Source: Lytechinus pictus
Taxonomy: Eukaryota
Length of the DNA: 64,000 nucleotides
Direction of reading: 5' to 3'
Assembly: GCF_037042905.1 (NCBI RefSeq)
Contig: NC_087251.1
Span: forward strand, 23,190,001-23,254,000
The notes beneath the pieces are model-generated. The model was given only the letters and a program-made list of their open reading frames with translations. It had not been told where the DNA came from and searched no databases. The translations under genes and the position numbers were made by a program. Shown piece after piece: positions 46,189-63,847 of this stretch. Position 1 is the stretch's first letter. Each line of letters starts with the position of its first letter.

Positions 46189-47928
46189 GTTGCATGCTCA
46201 TTATGGGGGCTAAAATTAACAAAAGTAAAGGAATACGGGCTTTTTCAAGCATGGGGAACCACGGTCCTGACTTTTCCCCCCATCCCTTAGTGCTGCCGAT
46301 GGGTAGAGTAAAAAACAACAAGGAAAGAGAGAAGACAAAATAGAAGAGAGAGAAGCGAAAGGGAGAGATAGGAAAGAAAAGGAGGGGGAAAGGGAGAGAA
46401 AGAGAAGGGAGAACGGAGGGGTCATATCATTGTATGAACAGGATATTTTATGATTATGCCCCGAGCATTAGTGCGAAGCTCAATGCGAGATAAGAACAAA
46501 ATAGAGGGGGCACACCATGGCGCACGCAGCAAAAATTTGCTTAATAATAAGTCTCCAGCGAGCGAAGCGAGCGAGAAGAAAAATCACCTTCAATTTTGAG
46601 ATTGATTTTGACATGGTATGCAGAAAATGACATATCTTTCCTCTTCCTTTTCTTTCTTTCCTTTTATCATTTTTTTTTCTCGGTTGTAGAACTTTTTTTT
46701 TTGGGGGGGGGCAGTGCTATGCGGTTCGGGTCCGGTGCAATGACGGTACTAGGGTTTTTAACCTAGGAGGAGGCAAACAAACATTTTGGGGCCGGGGGGA
46801 TGGCACACATTTTAAAAAAAAATCGAGCGAGAAGCGCGAGCTAATTTTATTGCAAATGCAGTCCCTACTGATTTAAAAAGGGAACTGTTAAGAATCAGCT
46901 GTTTGCATTAATTGGGTCATGAAGATGATATCTCACCAAATGAATAATGCGAGCGCGAAGCGTGAGCTGAAAATTTTTGATATCCGGGATGATACCTGGC
47001 CGTTCTAAGCTTTTTTTTAATTATAAAATGAATGGCTATCTAATTCGCTGAAAATAAATCCTCTATGGAAATTATGAATACGCAGGATATGTATCTCGCT
47101 AAAACAAATAATGAAAACTCTAATAACATTTGATTTTTAAGCCCCATGTGAACAGATAATCATTAATAACTGCGAGCGCGTATCGCGAGCTACATTTTGA
47201 ATTTTATATAATGGCCTGAAAGATTTATGTTAGTGACCAAAATTGTTGGGACCTAAATGCTAACGGTGAATGGATGAGAATATTTGTAAAATTTAAAGAA
47301 CAAAAAACATTTTTGTAGTATTATGACAACGTTTACTATACATTTTGTTTCTTCAAATTTCGGGGGGGGGGGCAACTCACTGAAGACTCCCCATTCGGTG
47401 GCGCCACTGGTCTGGGGCGGAGCCCCCAGAACCTCGTGATATTTTTAAACATTGCAGATGGCCATTTTTTTTTTAAAATCAAATCGCGGGTACATACATC
47501 ACATATTATATTAAGTTGCTAATTAATTGAATTGAAGGCTACACGTGCAAAAGAAAATGTCTCATGAGAATTATTCGAAGATTTGAGGAGCTTTATACTC
47601 ATATTTTATATTTTGACAATACGTTTTCTATCGATATACGCCCCCATCTTTTCTCCAAGAGATGACGATCTACAACAGAAGGCTGAAGATATTCATTCGA
47701 CCCAACCCATTCTCATTTTTTTAATTTGTAAGTTGATTACAAAAAAGAATATGTATAATGATTAGACTGATTCTAGAAACAGAGAATGGGCAACCATTGA
47801 ACATATTTTGTGCAAATAAAAGAAAAATACAGGTGTCACTCAGCTTTCGGAACTATTTTATTGGCGGAGGATTTAGGACTGAGTATAATATATGAATAAG
47901 ATCTGCTCATGAGATGCTTTAACCAGTT

Positions 47929-49025
47929 GCCCCCTAAATGTGCATGCGCCGGGTCAAGCTAGTGTTTATCTGGTTGCCCGAGTCGAGTTCTCCAAGTTAG
48001 GGTACGTGGTTACCCTGGCTAGGCCGTCGGGATATCCCTGGGGGCCCCTTGAAAAAATACTTTTAATTTAAAAAATGCGATAAATATCCCTTTATTCCCT
48101 TTACTTTTGTTAATTTGAGCCCCCTAAATGTGCATGCACCGGGTCAAGCTAGTGTTTACCTGGTTGCCCGAGTCGAGTTCTACAAGTTAGGATACGTGGT
48201 TACCCTGGCTAGGCCGTCGGGATATCCCTGGGGGGCCCCTTGAAAAATACTTTATTTTAATTTTAAAAATGCGATAAATAGCCCTTTATTCCCTTTAATT
48301 TTGTTAATTTAAGCCCCATAAATGTGCATGCGCCGGGCCAAGCTAGTGTTTATCTGGTTGCCCGAGTCGAGTTCTACAAGTTAGGATACGTGGTTACCCT
48401 GGCTAGGCCGTCGGGATATCCTTCGGGGCCCCTTGAAAAAATACTTTATTTTAATTTTAAAAATGCGATAAATAGCCCTTTATTCCCTTTAATTTTGTTA
48501 ATTTGAGCCCCCTAAATGTGCATGCGCCGGATCAAATCAGTGTTTATCTGGTTGCCCGAGTCGAGTTCTACAAGTTAGGGTACGTGGTTGCCCTGGCTAG
48601 GCCGTCGGGATATCCCTGGGGGCCCCTTGAAAATTTACTTTATTTTAATTTTAAAAATGCGATAAATAGCCCTTTATTCCCTTTAATTTTGTTAATTTTA
48701 GCCCCCTAAATCATGCATGCGCCGGGTCAAGTCAGTTTTTATCTGATCGCCCGAGTCAAGTTCTACAAGTTAGGATACGTGGTTACCCTGGCTAGGCCGT
48801 CGGGATATCCCTGGGGGCCCCTTGAAAAAATACTTTATTTTAATTTAAAAAATGCGATAAATAGCCCTTTATTCCCTTTACTTTTGTTAATTTGAGCCCC
48901 CTTAATGTGCATGCGCCGGGTCAAGTCAGTGTTTATCTGGTTGCCCGTGTCGAGCTCTACAAGTTAGGGTACGTGGTTACCCTGGCTAGGCCGTCGGGAA
49001 ATCCCTGGGGCGCCTCTTGAAAAAT
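47929..49025. repeat. ~194-bp tandem array (about 5-6 units), inverted, right arm
   Basis: Reverse complement of the 42735-44397 units. Confidence 0.92.
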
Positions 49026-49893
49026 TACTTTATTACACACACACCGCCAAAAATGGCCGGTGCCCCCCCCCCCCCCTCTGAAAAAGCAAGGACCCCCCAT
49101 TGCCCCCCCGGGGGGGGGGGAATCCTAGCTACGCCACTGTCTGTGAAGGTCCGAAAACGCTGGAAATTAAAAGCCATGTTAACGTGAATTTTTGTTGCAC
49201 GCGGTCGTAACATAAAGCTATTACGTAATAGCTTCATGGTCGTATCATGCACGCACTGTACTGCGTGCCCGTGTGTATAACGTATTTCGATATGGCTGTT
49301 GGTTGTGCGAAAGACGAAATCAGAGAGCAGGAAGTGGAAAGCGAACTACCCGATTTCGTTTTCGCTGTCTGCGTTTTTCCAAACAGAATCAGGGGGTAGA
49401 AAGCGTGTTCTGATTTTGTTTTTAATATATAACAAACACAGGTATAGAATGAGGTATCAGAGAGGACCAAAAGTATTTCTGATTTCATTCTTCTGTTTTT
49501 GATCTCCAAAAATGAAATCACAACGGGGGTTTTCTCGTTGTGATCTCGTTTTTGTGTTTTCAAAGACCAATCAATGAGGTTGACTTCCGTTTTTGCTCTA
49601 CGAAAATCAGGAATGAAAAACGAATTATCCATTAGTACCCTGATTCACTAACCCGTCTCTGTGGTCGAATGGTTAATACCTCAGTCACATTTCCTGTACA
49701 CGGCCGCCTTACGGCGAGTCGAAAACTTCCGTTTTATCTAACTTTATTCAAACCACCCATATATATGAAGCTGGTACAAAAAAAATAAACGGCTGTTTTC
49801 GACTCGCCATACGATCCCCTGCGGGTTCGGGGATTAGAGAATAGGCCCGCTGTATTCTCTGCATGTCGTAAGAGGCGACTAAAAGAGACAGTA

Positions 49894-50378
49894 GGTGGTT
49901 TCAGACCGCCTCGAAGTTCGCCAGTTCCAGGTATTCTCTGATCGGGAAATTTACCCCGATCAGAAAATACCAGGTATTTTGGCGGTCTGAAAGCAAACTA
50001 CGCGTAATATCCCCGAAAGAAAATACCCGATAAATAGTAGGTACTTGGCGAAATTACGAGAACTTTCGCGGGGATTTTTCCAAGGTCGTGGGTATTTTGG
50101 CGGTCTGAAAGCAAATTACGGGAACTTTTAGCCCAGCGTGTCGTTGGGTGCGGCGCCGTGGGTGGCTGCTGGGCTAGTGATTTTAAATTTCGCGCCTTGC
50201 TTGCTTATCAGACCATACTGCGCATGCTCGTAACTTCAGGAACTACTTCAGGAACTTATCCCGAAGGGTATGTTTCAGGGCGGTGTGAATGCAGGAATAA
50301 TTAATGGGTATTTTTCAGCCTAAAAAAGTTCTCGTAATTTAACGGGGATTCTTGTGATCGAGGCGGTTTGAAACCACC
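49894..50378. mobile_element. TA-flanked MITE inserted in the LINE 5' UTR
   Basis: ta|ggtggtttcagaccgcctcga ... tcgaggcggtttgaaaccacc|ta (21-bp TIR, 1 mismatch). Confidence 0.82.
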
Positions 50379-50871
50379 TACTCTGTTTGCCGTGGACTGC
50401 CACCCGTGTTGGGGGATAAAGGGATCCTGATGATTGAGTGGATGGTGTGACTGCGGTCCTCTTGAAACAACACGTCATTTTGGCCCTGGATTCTCCTAGT
50501 CGGGAGGTTTTATAGGCCTGGTAAAAATCAATCGGCTGGTGGTGTTCAGCCCTAAGATGCTATTTTAACTGGTTTATTTCTTGTTGTCTCTCGATGTGTA
50601 TTTTTGGGTTCTGTGTTGTTTGATCTCAAGCGATGTGATAGTTTGAACTTTGATTCTTTTGACACTACTTTCAATTTACTTTGGTATAGTATTTTAGAAG
50701 GCAACTGCTTAAACAGGTCAATCAGGGTGGATTTTGGTTTGCTCTGAGTATAGCACTGCTGTATCTCTGGCGTCAGTATAAGTGATTATCCTTATATATA
50801 TATATGACGTCCCCTTGTTGGACTCCGATGGTGGGTGGGGAGCAATGGTGCTGAATTAAAAAAAGAATAGT

Positions 50872-52162
50872 ATGGCTAATTTCAACAAACAATCCAATAA
50901 GCGGAGTAGAAGTAATTCCAATGATGGTACTGAGCCAGTTAACTTCCCACATTTTCTGGTCATTCAGGGTAGTGATCCAAATAAACCACTCAAACTATCG
51001 CCATTTGCTATAAATAAAGGTGTCGAGTCATTAGCTGGACCTGTGAAATCAATCAAAAGGTTAAGATCAGGTGATATTCTGGTGGAAGTCGAGAGAGCTG
51101 GTCAGGCGAGTAATTTGCTCAAGACCGACAAATTTGTCAATATTCCTATTAAAGTCTCACCTCATAAGACCTTAAACTCGTGTAAAGGGGTAGTTCGCTG
51201 CCCTGAACTTAGAGACTGCGACGATGATGAAATTCTTGAGGAACTTGCTGATCAGCAAGTAATCGATGTCCATAGAGTAACAGTCAATCAGAATGGAATT
51301 AAGAAACCAACTAATACCTTGTTTCTAACCTTTAACAGATCTACCATTCCTCCATATATCAAGGTTGGCTATTTGCGAGTTAAGGTGGATATTTACATCC
51401 CAAACCCCATTCGATGCTTCAAGTGCCAAAAATTTGGCCATTTCAGGAGCTATTGTCAACTGAATGAGTGTTGTGAGAATTGTGGCAAGGATGATCATAC
51501 TGGCTCTCCCTGCCAAGTTCCATCAAAGTGTATTAACTGTGGTGGCAGTCATCCTGCTAATTCTCGGTCGTGTCCAAAATGGATCGAGGAGAAAAGAATC
51601 CAAGAATTGAAAGCTTTGGGTAACCTATCCTGTATCCTATCCTGAAGCACGGAAGCTGTATCAAACACAACATACTCAAAGTTGTTCATACGCAGATAAG
51701 ACCAAACAAAGTACTGGAGGAACTAATCAACAATCTAAATTAACTCAACAGCCTAAGGCTACAGCTACTACCCAAACTGACATAACTTGGTTAAATGGTG
51801 ATTTCCCTGTGACTCTTGAAAATAATAAAGCAACAAATACAGAGAAACCTAAATCTCAAACTAAAAAACAAGATCAACAGAAGAAGGGGCAGACTAAGAC
51901 TAAGGATGGTCGTCGAAGTCGAAGTCTCTCACGGGATCCTCCCACTAGAAATACTTCAAGTAATCAAGAAACTAAAAAACCATCAACTAAAGTGAAAAGT
52001 AAACCTCAGATAAATGTATCAAAACCAAAGTTAACTGACTCAGTAGTAACTAAAAATAAATATGATGTATTATCAATTGAGAGAGATGATGATATGGATA
52101 TTTCTCCAATTCATCAACCCTCCTCTAAAATTAAATTGGTTCAAAAATTAGATAATACGTAA
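50872..52162 (+). pseudogene. LINE ORF1 nucleic-acid-binding protein, frameshifted near 51630
   Basis: CFKCQKFGH...C, CENCGKDDH...C, CINCGGSH...C; small duplication tatcctg/tatcct breaks the frame; basic tail continues to TAA 52160-52162, directly abutting the ORF2 ATG. Confidence 0.85.
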
Positions 52163-54719
52163 ATGTATTATCATGGGAAGGAAAAAGCCGTTGTTCAATG
52201 GAACTGTCGAGGAGTAAAACCTAATTATGAGGAAATCAAATGTCTTTTACTTAATCATAATCCATATGTTATGTGTTTACAAGAAACATTTTTGAGAGAT
52301 TCAGATAATATTTCATTTAGGGGTTATGATATGTTTAATAAAACTAGTACTTCTTTGATAGATGGTAGACCTATTAGAGGTTCATCAATATTGATTAAGA
52401 AAGGAGTTCCACATGAAGCTCTTGAACTTCATACTAATCTACAAGCTGTTGCAGCTAAGATAACCCTCCACTGCACTTTTACAATATGTTCCATATATAT
52501 TCCACCTAGACATGAGCTTTCAGAAGCTGAATTAGTTAGACTAGTTAACCAGCTTCCTGTACCTTTTTTGTTAGTAGGGGATTTTAATGCTCACAGTTCC
52601 CTTTGGGGCTGTCAGAACTCAAATAGATTAGGTAATATTGTTGAGCTAATGCTTGAACATTTTGATTTATGTCTTTTAAATGATGATTCTCCTACATATC
52701 TTCATCCAGCTTCTGGTTCCATGACGGCTATCGATATATCTATTTGTTCACCTAATATTTTTATGGATTTCCAATGGAAAGTCCATAGTGAACAATGTGG
52801 TAGCGATCACTTCCCTATTCTTATTGAAATTGTAAGACCTTTACCAGAGGAAAAAGTTCCTAAATGGCAACTTCACAAAGCAAATTGGGATGCTTTCTCA
52901 AATCAGTGTTTATTAAATATTAATAATGGTAATTTTCAGGATACAGAGGATCCTCTTGCTTTGTTTTCTCATACATTACTTGATATAGCTACCAATACGA
53001 TACCAAAATCTGGTTCTTCTCATCGTAAACATAATCCTTGGTTTAATGCTGAATGTAAAGAAGCTGTTAAATGTCGTAAAAAGGCCTTAAGGAAATTTAA
53101 AAAATACCCAAATAATAACAATTTGCGAAAATATCGAGAAACAAGAGCAAAGACACGCAATATTATCAAGAAAAATAAACGTCAATCTTGGAAAAATTAT
53201 GTTTCTAAACTGAATATTCATACTCCCATTAATAAAGTGTGGGAAATGGTGAGGAAAATATGTGGAAAACATCTGAGTAATTCTGTATCTTATTTGACTA
53301 AATCGGATGGTGATAAATGTACAGAAAGGACAGATATTGTTAATTTACTGGCAGAGGAATTCGAACATAACTCATCATCTAATCATTACTCTCCTACATT
53401 TCAGATTTATAAAAATCAAGCAGAAAGTCAGGAACTCAATTTTTTATCAAATAATGTAAAGGATTATAATATCCCATTTACTATCTCTGAGTTGAAAAAC
53501 TCACTCGGTAAATGTCATGATACTGCAACTGGTCCAGATGAAATTCATTATCAATTTTTAAAACATCTACCAGAAGCATCTCTTTTAGTTCTTTTAGATA
53601 TATTTAACAAAATTTGGAGAACAGGTGACTTCCCAGATTCGTGGCGGGAAGCTATCATTATTCCTATTCCGAAACCTGGTAAGGACACATCTAAGCCTAC
53701 GAATTATCGTCCCATCTCTTTGACTAGTTGTCTTTGTAAAACCATGGAAAGAATGATTAATGCCCGATTAGTTTGGTTCTTGGAGAAGCGTGGTTTGATT
53801 TCAAAGTTTCAAAGTGGTTTTCGTCATAATCGAAGCACTGTTGATCAACTTATTCGACTTGAATCTTTCATTCGTGATGGCATTATTCGAGGTCACCATG
53901 TGGTATCTGTCTTTTTTGATCTTGAAAAGGCCTATGATACTACTTGGAAGTATGGAATTATGAGAGACCTTTTCAATCTTGGGTTGAGGGGCAGGTTGCC
54001 CATTTTCATTCAGAATTTTCTTTCGAATCGTGTGTTTCGAGTCCGCCTAGGGTCAACTTTTTCAGAATTACACAATCAGGAAATGGGTGTTCCTCAAGGT
54101 AGCATACTTTCTGTTACTTTGTTCTTATTGAAGATCAATAGCATTGTTGACGTTGTAAATCCTAGGTTTGATAAGTCCTTGTTTGTGGACGACTTCTGTA
54201 TTTCTTGTTCGTCACGAAATATGTCGACCATTGAAACAGTATTACAAAATTGTCTAAATAGAATTGAAAGGTGGGCAGATGAGAATGGTTTCCGCTTTTC
54301 AAAAACCAAGACAGTTTGTGTACATTTTTGTACTAAACGATCAGTGCATCCAGATCCTAAAATTAGAATAAATGGCTCTATCATTCCTATAGTTCAACAA
54401 ACTAAATACCTAGGCTTAATCTTTGATAATAAACTCAATTTTAAAGCTCATATTGATTATGTAAGACAAAAGTGTCATAAAGCTTTAAATCTTTTGAAGG
54501 TTGTGTCCAAAATGGATTGGGGTGCTGATCGCATTGTCCTCCTCCGTTTATATAGATCTTTAGTTAGATCTAAGCTTGATTATGGCAGTGCAGTTTATAG
54601 TTCCGCCCGAAAGTCATATCTTGAAAAATTGAAACCCATACAGAATCAAGGACTTCGACTTTGTCTAGGAGCATTTCGTACATCTCCTATGGAGAGTCTT
54701 TATGTGGAGGCTAATGAAC
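52163..54719 (+). CDS. LINE ORF2: AP endonuclease + reverse transcriptase (C-terminally broken)
   Basis: QWNCRG, LQET, GDFNAH, SDHFPI; GPDEI, YRPISL, FFDLEKAYD, GVPQGS, FVDD, KYLG. Confidence 0.93.
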
Positions 54720-54724
54720 TAAAA

Positions 54725-56357
54725 GAAAAGAGGAGTAGGTTTTTTAACGTGCAAATGGTGTGACTCTCCCTTACACGGGACCGACGGCTTAGAGTCTCCT
54801 CCGAAAGACTAGACAATTGGAATAAAATACCTTGCCCAAGGGTATACCTGTTGTGATTGGGAATCGAACAGTTTCCCACCTAAAATCTAATAAACAGATT
54901 GATCTCCTTTAGGAAATTTACAATACATAATCGTGAAATATCTCTAAATAATATCTTAAGGTCAGGAACATCATAAAAGTTAGTACGAATATGTGCAAAA
55001 TCAGCACATTCAATGAGGATGTGTTTTACTGTAAGTGTACAATTACATGATATGCATTGAGGTGGATTTTCTCCTGCAAATAAATATGCATGTGTTAAGT
55101 GAGAATGTCCAATACGAGCACGGGTCAATACAATGTCTTCCCGTCGTTTAGCTAATGGAAGAGTATTTTGTGATTCAAGTCTTGGTTGGTGTTGATGGAG
55201 TTTATTATTAGGATTTAGATCCCATGATGTTTGCCATTTATTTCTAATATAAGTATTAACCTTTGATTTTAGATCAGTGTAAGGTATCTGTATTTCTGTT
55301 ATATCCAGATCTAAAGCTTCTTTAGCTAACTTATCAGCTTTTTCATTACCTTGAATACCTGTCTGGCTTGGTATCCAAACAAATATTATTCGTTTATCTA
55401 GTGTATTAAGTTTATACAGAATTTCCAATAACTGAACAATATAAGGATGTTTATGATTTCTATTTTGTAATGCCGTTAAAGAAGACAAAGAATCTGTATA
55501 AATAACAAAAAGTCTACCGACACAGTTTTCTACAACACCTAAAGCCATTTTCAAAGCTAATAACTCATCAGTATATATGGAAGAACTATCTGGCAATCTA
55601 ACTTGTCTTTGTATAGGACCACTGATACAAGCCGCACCTACTTTATTCTGGTGTTTTGATCCATCTGTATAGATTGCACGATAATTACTATATTTATGTC
55701 TCATTTCTCCAAATTTATTTAGGAAAACTAAATCACTTGTAAAACCCTTTTTATATGTTCTTAGTGTAAAATCAATTACTGGTTCAGCAATCATCCATGG
55801 TGGCATATTAGATATCAAGGAAGGAGCTACGTTAGTAGCATCCAGTATATGTGTTAAAGCTTCTTTCGTACGTAAACCAAAAGTTTTGATGGCTGATGGT
55901 TTACTAGTATAAAAATTAATATATCGTGGCGTGAATGTACAATCATATGTCGGATTATGAGAGTTATTTTTTAACTTTATCGCATAGTGTAAAGAGAGTT
56001 TTTCGTATCTTAGATGTAAGGGGGGTTCATTAGCCTCCACATAAAGACTCTCCATAGGAGATGTACGAAATGCTCCTAGACAAAGTCGAAGTCCTTGATT
56101 CTGTATGGGTTTCAATTTTTCAAGATATGACTTTCGGGCGGAACTATAAACTGCACTGCCATAATCAAGCTTAGGTCTAACTAAAGATCTATATAAACGG
56201 AGAAGGACAATGCGATCAGCACCCCAATCCATTTTGGACACAACCTTCAAAAGATTTAAAGCTTTATGACACTTTAGTCTTACATAATCAATATGAGCTT
56301 TAAAATTGAATTTATTATCAAATATTAAGCCTAGGTATTTAGTTTGTTGAACTACAG
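54725..56357 (-). mobile_element. 5'-truncated LINE copy B (end of RT, RNase H, CCHC, partial 3' UTR), inverted
   Basis: ORF 54880-56397: KYLG..., IYTDGSK, YTDS, WIPS, GNEKAD, CISC...H...C; several substitutions relative to copy C. Confidence 0.9.
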
Positions 56358-57870
56358 GATTGATTGATTGATAAAAATTTAACGACACTATCAACACATG
56401 CGTGTCATATAAGTGTCGGACAGTTAATCTGGAAAGGTTACTATAATACAGTACAAATTACCCTAATGCAACTTTACAAAGGAACAGGATTATAAATAAG
56501 TGATTATCAGCAATAAATTAATATGTTAACTACTTCCCCGGGATAACTTCCCTACTCTTTACGAAAAGAGGAGTAGGTTTTTTAACGTGCAAATGGTGTG
56601 ACTCTCCCTTACACGGGACCGACGGCTTAGAGTCTCCTCCGAAAGACTAGACAATTGGAATAAAATACCTTGCCCAAGGGTATACCTGTTGTGATTGGGA
56701 ATCGAACAGTTTCCCACCTAAAATCTAATAAACAGATTGATCTCCTTTAGGAAATTTACAATACATAATCGTGAAATATATCTAAATAATATCTTAAGGT
56801 CAGGAACATCATAAAAGTTAGTACGAATATGTGCAAAATCAACACATTCAATGAGGATGTGTTTTACTGTAAGTGTACAATTACATGATATGCATTGAGG
56901 TGGATTTTCTCCTGCAAATAAATATGCATGTGTTAAGTGAGAATGTCCAATACGAGCACGGGTCAATACAATGTCTTCCCGTCGTTTAGCTAATGGAAGA
57001 GTATTTTGTGATTCAAGTCTTGGTTGGTGTTGATGGAGTTTATTATTAGGATTTAGATCCCATGATGTTTGCCATTTATTTCTAATATAAGTATTAACCT
57101 TTGATTTTAGATCAGTGTAAGGTATCTGTATTTCTGTTATATCCAGATCTAAAGCTTCTTTAGCTAACTTATCAGCTTTTTCATTACCTTGAATACCTGT
57201 ATGGCTTGGTATCCAAACAAATATTATTTGTTTACCTAGTGTATTGAGTTTATACAGAATTTCCAATAACTGAACAATATAAGGATGTTTATGATTTCTA
57301 TTTTGTAATGCCGTTAAAGAAGACAAAGAATCTGTATAAATAACAAAAAGTCTACCGACACAGTTTTCTACAACACCTAAAGCCATTTTCAAAGCTAATA
57401 ACTCAGCAGTATATATGGAAGAACTATCTGGCAATCTAACTTGTCTTTGTATAGGACCACTGATACAAGCCGCACCTACTTTATTCTGGTGTTTTGATCC
57501 ATCTGTATAGATTGCACGATAATTACTATATTTATGTCTTATTTCTCCAAATTTATTTAGGAAAACTAAATCACTTGTAAAACCCTTTTTATATGTTCTT
57601 AGTGTAAAATCAATTACTGGTTCAGCAATCATCCATGGTGGAATATTAGATATCAAGGAAGGAGCTACGTTAGTAGCATCCAGTATATGTGTTAAAGCTT
57701 CTTTAGTACGTAAACCAAAAGTTTTGATGGCTGATGGTTTACTAGTATAAAAATTAATATATCGTGGCGTGAATGTACAATCATATGTCGGATTATGAGA
57801 GTTATTTTTTAACTTTATCGCATAGTGTAAAGAGAGTTTTTCGTATCTTAGATGTAAGGGGGGTTCATTA
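56358..57870 (-). mobile_element. LINE 3' part (copy C: RNase H, 3' UTR, (AATC)n tail), inverted duplicate
   Basis: Mirror of 62335-63847. Confidence 0.9.
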
Positions 57871-62334: not shown

Positions 62335-63847
62335 TAATGAACCCCCCTTACATCTAAGATACGAAAAACTCTCTTTACACTATGCGATAAAGTTAAAAAA
62401 TAACTCTCATAATCCGACATATGATTGTACATTCACGCCACGATATATTAATTTTTATACTAGTAAACCATCAGCCATCAAAACTTTTGGTTTACGTACT
62501 AAAGAAGCTTTAACACATATACTGGATGCTACTAACGTAGCTCCTTCCTTGATATATAATATTCCACCATGGATGATTGCTGAACCAGTAATTGATTTTA
62601 CACTAAGAACATATAAAAAGGGTTTTACAAGTGATTTAGTTTTCCTAAATAAATTTGGAGAAATAAGACATAAATATAGTAATTATCGTGCAATCTATAC
62701 AGATGGATCAAAACACCAGAATAAAGTAGGTGCGGCTTGTATCAGTGGTCCTATACAAAGACAAGTTAGATTGCCAGATAGTTCTTCCATATATACTGCT
62801 GAGTTATTAGCTTTGAAAATGGCTTTAGGTGTTGTAGAAAACTGTGTCGGTAGACTTTTTGTTATTTATACAGATTCTTTGTCTTCTTTAACGGCATTAC
62901 AAAATAGAAATCATAAACATCCTTATATTGTTCAGTTATTGGAAATTCTGTATAAACTCAATACACTAGGTAAACAAATAATATTTGTTTGGATACCAAG
63001 CCATACAGGTATTCAAGGTAATGAAAAAGCTGATAAGTTAGCTAAAGAAGCTTTAGATCTGGATATAACAGAAATACAGATACCTTACACTGATCTAAAA
63101 TCAAAGGTTAATACTTATATTAGAAATAAATGGCAAACATCATGGGATCTAAATCCTAATAATAAACTCCATCAACACCAACCAAGACTTGAATCACAAA
63201 ATACTCTTCCATTAGCTAAACGACGGGAAGACATTGTATTGACCCGTGCTCGTATTGGACATTCTCACTTAACACATGCATATTTATTTGCAGGAGAAAA
63301 TCCACCTCAATGCATATCATGTAATTGTACACTTACAGTAAAACACATCCTCATTGAATGTGTTGATTTTGCACATATTCGTACTAACTTTTATGATGTT
63401 CCTGACCTTAAGATATTATTTAGATATATTTCACGATTATGTATTGTAAATTTCCTAAAGGAGATCAATCTGTTTATTAGATTTTAGGTGGGAAACTGTT
63501 CGATTCCCAATCACAACAGGTATACCCTTGGGCAAGGTATTTTATTCCAATTGTCTAGTCTTTCGGAGGAGACTCTAAGCCGTCGGTCCCGTGTAAGGGA
63601 GAGTCACACCATTTGCACGTTAAAAAACCTACTCCTCTTTTCGTAAAGAGTAGGGAAGTTATCCCGGGGAAGTAGTTAACATATTAATTTATTGCTGATA
63701 ATCACTTATTTATAATCCTGTTCCTTTGTAAAGTTGCATTAGGGTAATTTGTACTGTATTATAGTAACCTTTCCAGATTAACTGTCCGACACTTATATGA
63801 CACGCATGTGTTGATAGTGTCGTTAAATTTTTATCAATCAATCAATC
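62335..63847 (+). mobile_element. LINE 3' part (copy C) completing the element begun at 49814: RNase H + CCHC, 3' UTR, (AATC)n tail
   Basis: Starts NEPPLHLR in continuity with ...YVEANE; stop at 63487; tail atcaatcaatcaatc 63833-63847. Confidence 0.9.

Follow-up and report, generated by a model that had tools for sequence, protein, structure and literature searches.

The 5' end of a Lytechinus pictus LINE

The window analyzed here, i.e., the whole stretch of 64,000 nucleotides from Lytechinus pictus (positions 23,190,001 to 23,254,000 of contig NC_087251.1, assembly GCF_037042905.1), contains a long interspersed nuclear element (LINE) on its forward strand, and at the very 5' end of this element lies a conserved motif of the LINE-derived (LP) head type (49814..49892, plus strand). 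Positions 49814-49888 read AUCCCCUGCGGGUUCGGGGAUUAGAGAAUAGGCCCGCUGUAUUCUCUGCAUGUCGUAAGAGGCGACUAAAAGAGA. We propose that the motif is a conserved 5'-terminal module of approximately 75 to 79 nt, the RNA of which would fold into a hairpin (S1), a pseudoknot (S2), a linker, and a nested stem (S3-S4), and which would act in cis and define the 5' end of the element. On the sequence evidence, we give this reading a probability of about 0.6.

The 5' boundary of the motif is exact in 14 genome copies, and the motif has homologues in metagenome loci. In a genome search with positions 49700-49960, the query proved to consist of two unrelated repeats joining at approximately 49892: of the 40 scored matches, nine and the window itself fell on the motif, and the other 30 fell on sequence from approximately 49888. 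Upstream of the initial (A/G)(U)CCCC, the sequence is different in every copy of the LINE family. Downstream, the motif continues in the other copies into CTGTTTGCCGTGG, a continuation that is found in the window only at 50383. The 14 5' ends of the window LINE family in the genome start within 3 nt of one base and have unrelated flanks. A 78-mer of the LINE 5' end had 12 genome matches at ≤3 mismatches (control, 0), a 23-mer had 14 exact matches (control, 1 match at ≤3 mismatches), and a diverged query likewise recovered 14 copies of the family. Additionally, contigs of two public runs (X1 and X14) switch to other flanks precisely at the 5' boundary of the motif. The bases before CCCC are AU in 8 of the 14 family copies and others in 2, and a subfamily of 4 has an extra C after G. 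In 49 metagenome copies, A, AA, or TAA is in excess ahead of CCCC, and only 2 copies reach further 5'. Accordingly, the predicted RNA fold is placed at most 3 nt from the 5' end of the element. No RNA data set was listed as carrying the motif. Among raw RNA reads of a related organism, one run yielded 0 and another 5 on the motif, too few for a start site to be called.

The body of the LINE follows on the plus strand. The remainder of its 5' untranslated region (UTR) (50383..50859) is collinear with intact copies (L003, L005, and L007). The ORF1 region (50860..52162) is split into two overlapping open frames in the window copy and had no Pfam match at E ≤ 0.01; CCHC-type knuckles were recognized by eye in copy L007. 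ORF2 (52163..54719) encodes an AP-endonuclease (approximately 52193-52810) and a reverse transcriptase (approximately 53666-54421), with Pfam E values of 4.6e-12 for Exo_endo_phos, 6.9e-20 for Exo_endo_phos_2, and 2.3e-32 for RVT_1, and the copy ends at approximately 54719. An inverted fragment of the same family (54725..56407, minus strand) supplies the C-terminal part of ORF2 with RNase H (RNase_H, 1.2e-11 on P0001) and the 3' region. The combination of AP-endonuclease, reverse transcriptase, RNase H, and ORF1 CCHC knuckles makes the architecture that of the I superfamily and compatible with Nimb, a class assignment drawn from domains and not from a tree, and is consistent with a young I/Nimb-like non-LTR retrotransposon (LTR, long terminal repeat). 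A preliminary description of this DNA had located the motif at a LINE 5' end, and the 14 copies with unrelated flanks, together with the three enzymatic domains, bear out that placement.

Conservation of the pseudoknotted fold

All pairings drawn in the preliminary description are present in the window sequence between 49814 and 49888. The first hairpin had been drawn as AUCCCC (49814-49819) with GGGGAU (49829-49834). Its CCCC/GGGG core, our S1 (49816-49819 with 49829-49832), is conserved and closes a 9-nt loop, UGCGGGUUC, whereas its AU/UA ends occur in subfamily A only. The pseudoknot had been drawn with 7 bp. Five of these, our S2 (GCGGG/CCCGC, 49821-49825 with 49846-49850), are conserved in the comparison and show pair-type changes in homologues, whereas the other two are not conserved. 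Between the strands of S2 lies a purine-rich linker, AUUAGAGAAUAGG, with an AGAAU core (49833..49845), which is unpaired in the conserved fold. The outer stem S3 (UCUCU/AGAGA, 49856-49860 with 49884-49888) encloses an internal loop (GCAU/UAAA, 49861-49864 and 49880-49883) and the cap S4 (GUCGU/GCGAC, 49865-49869 with 49875-49879), the loop of which is AAGAG. All of these features are on the plus strand.

The minimum-energy fold of the window sequence is a different one, in which the pseudoknot and the outer stem are replaced by a middle hairpin, AGAGAAUA/UAUUCUCU. Both folds were scored on a MAFFT alignment of 83 motif instances. The pseudoknotted fold had 90.3% of its cells paired, compared with 87.8 ± 0.3% in shuffles; its covariation score was 0.135 versus 0.100, and 50 cells were changed on both sides versus 18.5 ± 3.3, with none of 500 shuffles reaching the observed value in any of the three measures. 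Slid controls of this fold had 44 to 59% of cells paired. The minimum-energy alternative had 71.6% of cells paired versus 71.4% in shuffles (149 of 500 reached it), with 9 versus 8.9 both-side changes, a covariation score of 0.056 versus 0.060, and slid controls of 42.5 to 50.1%; its middle helices were paired in 54% and 41% of cells. The middle hairpin was rejected, being restricted to the window family and not conserved in homologues. A long-range pairing predicted in the 200-nt UTR was also dropped (z = +0.43).

The helices differ in how much they contribute. In S1, each pair is CG in 44 to 62 of the 83 rows, and no informative covariation was seen. In S2, 47 rows have AU and 24 have GC at one pair, and at the neighboring pair 62 rows have CG and 4 have UA; the variants found across lineages are GCGGG/CCCGC, GCAGG/CCUGC, GUGGG/CCCAC (L142), and GUAGG/CCUA (L047). 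The linker positions A28, G29, A30, A31, and T32 are each at least 90% conserved. Five fully paired haplotypes of S3 were found, namely, UCUCU/AGAGA (window family), CCUCCU/AGGAGG, CCCCU/AGGGG, UCUCCU/AGGAGA, and CCUUCU/AGAAGG. When S3 was scored without an alignment, by offset from an invariant anchor, Watson-Crick pairing reached 87% in 86 copies (74 ± 1.4% in shuffles; 0 of 2,000) and 74% in 39 unique haplotypes (59 ± 2.7%; 0 of 2,000), with slid controls at 31 to 54%. RNAalifold, run independently on 17 lineage representatives, returned a 5' hairpin, S3, and S4 and did not predict the middle hairpin of the minimum-energy fold. The RNA reads of the related organism contain a paired change, U45C with A73G. 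From these comparisons, S3 appears well supported and S2 moderately supported, and S1 is conserved but uninformative. That the motif is of a conserved structured RNA type with a pseudoknot, as had been suggested from the window alone, agrees with homologue pairing and covariation above those of 500 of 500 shuffles.

Several points weigh against a conserved, functional RNA fold. Thermodynamic signal is absent from the single sequence: the RNAfold energy is -22.3 kcal/mol (z = -0.55), a value matched or bettered by 55 of 200 shuffles, and 200 nt of an intact copy give z = +0.43. The search pattern itself prescribed S4, GCAU, UAAA, and two positions of S3, and their invariance is no evidence. Both covarying pairs of S2 are at CpG dinucleotides, at which changes are most commonly double transitions, and S3 sets pyrimidines against purines, so that pairing survives three of the four transition combinations. 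Dead copies of one element make up most rows of the alignment, and its cells are not independent events. Wobble cells (46) are about as many as C.A cells (41), as in neutral decay, and are uninformative about the folding strand. In L048, a relative from the same genome, S2 and S3 each contain one unpaired change. At the transcript level, three RNA reads of the related organism cross the 5' boundary from upstream, and the catalytic cores of the Rfam ribozyme families were all undetectable in the motif.

Homologues in the genome and in metagenomes

L048, a singleton, is 77% identical to the window LINE over UTR positions 3-253. It shares 250 nt with the window LINE, and by this measure it is a closer relative than the metagenome elements. 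A second locus in the same genome, L047 (G000:C15:6739572-6741676), is a decayed relic, the motif-bearing part of which is unique in the genome; this solitary motif stands beside an array of approximately 190-bp tandem repeats and a dispersed repeat of approximately 95 bp.

A third, single-copy locus (L050/L051; G000:C14:4127374-4127688, minus strand) retains 46 nt of the motif (38/46 identical), in frame and just upstream of an RTE-like ORF2 C-terminal fragment. Taken by itself, this arrangement would suit a decayed coding sequence of an RTE ORF2 C terminus with chance hairpins. However, many lineages conserve the motif with covariation, and the UTR has no DNA- or protein-level match in any of 29 other RTE-like loci; we consider such an origin extremely improbable. 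The locus is better read as a chimera, and it may be a chimeric or internally deleted RTE that carries the head.

Metagenome contigs scanned with GCATGTCGTARRAGGCGACTAAAAG gave at least 120 stretches, 80 of which were fetched. Most of the fetched stretches (L096-L175) represent a non-autonomous element of approximately 560 nt that begins with the motif and ends in an (ATGG)n tail; LINE-UTR-type relatives were also present (L125, L131, L142, L144, and L167). The short element has A/B-box-like words behind the motif, recognized by eye, and ARAGORN called no tRNA in 10 loci, nor was there an Rfam tRNA match in 13 loci at E ≤ 1. It comprises two subfamilies, differing at the covarying pseudoknot pair and at GTAGCC versus GTATCC. 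Tandem pairs of the motif occur in L097 (approximately 540-640) and L158 (approximately 589-749), and the upstream copy in L097 is without the GCAU side. The metagenome elements have only the block of approximately 75 nt in common with the window LINE, and homology stops after the motif. A 10-nt 5' extension pairing with the linker, suggested by L134, was rejected, as only 2 of 49 metagenome copies have at least 5 matching bases. Viral contigs scanned with the 5' half of the motif gave no matches.

Correspondence with the LP head

As a sequence, the module appears to be known already. Matetovici et al. (2016) described an LP head of approximately 68 to 70 bp at the start of the 5' UTR of Nimb-clade LINEs (PMC4758252). 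According to that paper, the head is common to Nimb-17_LMi, I-3_DR, RTE-9_CPB, and the LP-type short interspersed nuclear elements (LP-SINEs) of Littorina, Haliotis, Ostrea, and Saccostrea, with homology limited to approximately 70 bp, and in the MESC SINEs of scallops (pectinoids), the LP domain is located upstream of a tRNA head (PMC4758252). In its supplement, the scallop SINE rows contain ..CCCCCTGCAGG..AAGAA-TTG..CCTGCTG..TTGCAT / GATCGTAAGAGGCGACTAAG.., and the Pan_3 row contains ..GTGTCGTAAGAGGCGACTAAAGT; read by eye and without an alignment, these rows show the words of the motif in unchanged order, with GTCGTAAGAGGCGACTAA or close variants among them. By eye, the scallop rows also gave another S3 variant, CCCAU/AUGGG. 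By these words, the motif appears to match the LP head of Matetovici et al.

The preliminary description had given GTCGTAAGAGGCGACTAA as recurrent at the 5' ends of invertebrate LINEs, and the genome, the metagenome contigs, and the supplement rows agree with this. Its suggestion that the element was possibly undescribed holds in part: the domain of approximately 70 bp was published in 2016, whereas the fold is undescribed in the main text of that paper. The word "pseudoknot" is absent from that main text, the secondary-structure passages of which all concern the Vhc domain (supplement file 1 lay outside this search; PMC4758252). The motif seed string did not occur in the literature searched, and LP-SINE and Nimb-17 terms were found in PMC4758252 only. 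The sequence module thus appears to be known and the conserved pseudoknotted RNA undescribed, as far as these searches reach.

The function put forward for the LP head leads to an alternative account of the motif, in which the block is an internal RNA polymerase II (Pol II) promoter that acts as DNA and the apparent RNA fold is functionless. Internal promoters within the first bases are found in LINEs of the I and jockey groups, and the block is situated at the extreme 5' end of elements with near-uniform starts; the missing thermodynamic signal in the single sequence also fits. Polyadenylation signals of the kind usual in Pol II transcripts are present in LP-SINEs, and the paper proposes a promoter role for the head (PMC4758252). 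That role is a proposal, however, and across lineages the pairing of S3 and the pseudoknot is maintained by compensatory changes, whereas a protein-binding DNA site would keep its sequence and not its complementarity. We regard a promoter without an RNA function as improbable.

Insertion and neighboring repeats

Alignment with three intact copies revealed an insertion of approximately 490 bp in the LINE 5' UTR right behind the motif (49893..50382, no strand assigned), which parts the motif from the rest of the UTR in the window copy and had been missed in the preliminary description. It is a miniature inverted-repeat transposable element (MITE)-like element with terminal inverted repeats (TIRs) of 21 bp (1 mismatch) and is absent from the three other aligned copies. 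The element has internal palindromes, and AGT / ACT at its junctions leave the target duplication ambiguous. Its 5' end is abundant and young, accounting for 30 of the 40 scored matches at 95 to 100% identity, with 2,096 first-look candidates.

Just upstream of the LINE, an inverted repeat, GGCGAGTCGAAAAC ... GTTTTCGACTCGCC, occupies 49708-49813 and has weak matches to Rfam microRNA (miRNA) families (E, 1.3 to 8.6). Possibly, this is a further small TIR element, and the LINE landed in it or next to it.

At approximately 54719 (54719-54725), the LINE copy is broken off against the inverted fragment of the same family. The 3' tail of the family, as read from the window's own copies, is (ATCA)n. 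Twice in the window, an (ATCA)n tail is followed by a 5'-truncated copy that starts inside ORF2 (56358-56372, minus strand, and 63833-63847, plus strand), and the two junctions, in opposite orientation, are identical over at least 170 nt. These repeated identical junctions suggest head-to-tail LINE arrays within an inverted duplication.

Proposed function of the module

The motif bears on how non-LTR retrotransposons, and the SINEs parasitic on them, come to have a complete and defined 5' end, a question posed by most clades. We propose that the module is self-contained and acts in cis, and that it would create or preserve a defined 5' end of the RNA that is reverse transcribed. The block sits on very different LINE bodies (Nimb and RTE) and on a short non-coding element, and for this reason it probably works without the element's own proteins, either alone or with host factors. 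Retention of the block by non-autonomous derivatives indicates that it would be required in cis at the 5' end, and the compensatory changes argue that what functions is the folded strand and not solely the DNA duplex. Because the trypanosomatid Pr77/L1TcRz is the closest precedent, we favor a dual model in which the DNA of the block would serve as an internal promoter and the transcribed fold would process the 5' end, through self-cleavage at its 5' edge, or shield it.

The odds of the component functions are not exclusive. Some function of the block at the RNA level seems highly probable. Promoter activity of the same DNA is about an even bet; catalysis by the block, as a self-cleaving ribozyme, is doubtful, and protection or the binding of host factors or a ribonucleoprotein (RNP) in place of catalysis is doubtful to the same degree.

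In its fuller form, the latter possibility holds that the pseudoknot binds a host or element protein for retrotransposition or blocks 5'-to-3' exonucleases. A compact 5'-terminal pseudoknot with conserved single-stranded bases, kept by a non-autonomous element, would be suited to such a task. The block serves Nimb and RTE elements with differing proteins, which argues against recognition by element-encoded proteins, and as a sufficient account of the motif we consider this unlikely.

Conservation of the fold turns the label "promoter" into an RNA hypothesis that is open to mutants. Should the block cleave or shield RNA, a widespread metazoan RNA class would be missing from Rfam, and the recruitment of a LINE 5' end as a head by SINEs would be explained.

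Comparison with known structured RNAs

The preliminary description had found no likeness to the HDV-like, hammerhead, or twister ribozymes and had pointed to Rfam for comparison; the searches with Rfam 15 agree with it. No match on the motif was obtained in window positions 47000-57000 (E ≤ 10), in 13 loci (E ≤ 1), or in two stretches of 190 to 240 nt (E ≤ 10), and the only matches were weak ones of miRNA type, all on the neighboring palindromes. The pistol and hatchet models likewise gave no match to the motif at E ≤ 10. The HDV-like order P1-P2-P3-P1'-P4-P2', with a catalytic C before P2', is not seen in the motif, nor is the twister L4 loop with T1 (GC), T2 (CCC:GGG), and UA cleavage next to P2; the cap loop of the motif is ARRAG, and a GAGGG strand is not conserved. 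The hammerhead core CUGAUGA ... GAAA with helices I to III is also lacking. Because no Rfam model matches and the helix order departs from the HDV and twister definitions, the motif is assigned to a position outside the HDV-like, twister, hammerhead, pistol, and hatchet families. It may resemble pistol in that a hairpin loop pairs downstream behind an A-rich linker. The words CUGAUGA and GAAAC are present at UTR positions of approximately 124-165 in intact copies. Approximately 125 to 170 nt into the UTR, the words CUGAUGA ... GAAAC ... GUC occur in L007 (approximately 1415-1460, minus) and in the window (approximately 50425-50470), where no helix II was apparent by eye and no Rfam hammerhead match was obtained.

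HDV-like ribozymes release R2, RTE, and L1Tc from read-through transcripts, and twister variants release Perere-3. The RNA of the present element could be freed in the same manner by a ribozyme of a new class, with self-cleavage no more than 3 nt from its own 5' edge. Portable structured RNAs at LINE 5' termini in the literature compared are all ribozymes, and one RTE, of a clade that usually has HDV-like ribozymes, carries the LP block instead (PMC4758252). The pseudoknotted fold is compact, its unpaired bases are strongly conserved, upstream sequence is irrelevant, and S3 with its internal loop resembles P2/L2 of the Schistosoma twister (CUCC GC .. GUAAA GGAG versus CCUCCU GC AU .. UAAA AGGAGG). 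On the other side stand the negative Rfam searches, even at E ≤ 10 and with the 190- to 240-nt stretches, a helix order unlike that of HDV or twister, the missing L4 loop and two tertiary pairings of twister, a linker without the conserved C required by HDV-like ribozymes, and the three RNA reads that pass the boundary uncut. A ribozyme of this kind is tentative at best. Somewhat less likely still would be a broader reading, in which the block stands for a new class of small pseudoknotted RNA, either self-cleaving or exonuclease-blocking, that would define the 5' ends of Nimb and some RTE LINEs and of LP-type SINEs in molluscs, insects, fish, and reptiles. Such a class might be a functional counterpart of the HDV-like ribozymes and distantly twister-like in P2/L2.

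R2 RNA has a conserved pseudoknot near its 5' end that binds the R2 protein and has a role in integration. The motif is likewise a pseudoknot near the 5' end of a non-LTR element's RNA, but the R2 structure is restricted to R2 and is situated deeper within the RNA, whereas the present block is common to several LINE clades.

HDV-like ribozymes of R2, R4, RTE, and LOA are, like the motif, 5'-terminal, pseudoknotted, portable, and kept by internally deleted non-autonomous derivatives (Kojima 2018). In contrast to them, the motif has only 9 nt between the strands of S1, which leaves no room for P2 and P3, and has no P1.1; its linker before the second pseudoknot strand is without a conserved C, and its large stem comes after that strand and not before it. 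Perere-3 has twister and T-variant ribozymes at its 5' end (Liu et al. 2021, PMC8501958). The Perere-3 twister shares with the motif its place at a LINE 5' end and the succession of UA-, a pyrimidine stem (CUCC), GC, a hairpin, UAAA, and GGAG, whereas the motif is without the L4 loop, the CCC and GC tertiary pairings, and the GAGGG strand (PMC8501958). Moreover, a cut at the equivalent UA would remove the first 40 nt, which are retained in all copies of the motif. We treat the likeness between twister P2/L2 and S3 with its internal loop as a lead only.

Pr77/L1TcRz of the trypanosomatid L1Tc, NARTc, ingi, and RIME elements is a block of approximately 77 nt at the very 5' end, common to otherwise different LINEs and their non-autonomous partners, with a dual role as a promoter and a 5' self-cleaving RNA. 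The motif is similar in size, position, and distribution. The fold of L1TcRz is HDV-like, whereas the motif has another helix order and no HDV-type Rfam match; the two are set apart by description and not by sequence. Another close counterpart is the LP head, which, like the motif, occupies the extreme 5' end of I/Nimb-like LINEs, has homology confined to approximately 70 to 75 nt, and is shared with short non-autonomous elements, in some of which it is located upstream of a tRNA-type head (PMC4758252). In that paper, the domain is presented without an RNA fold, whereas the motif described here has a predicted pseudoknotted fold with compensatory changes.

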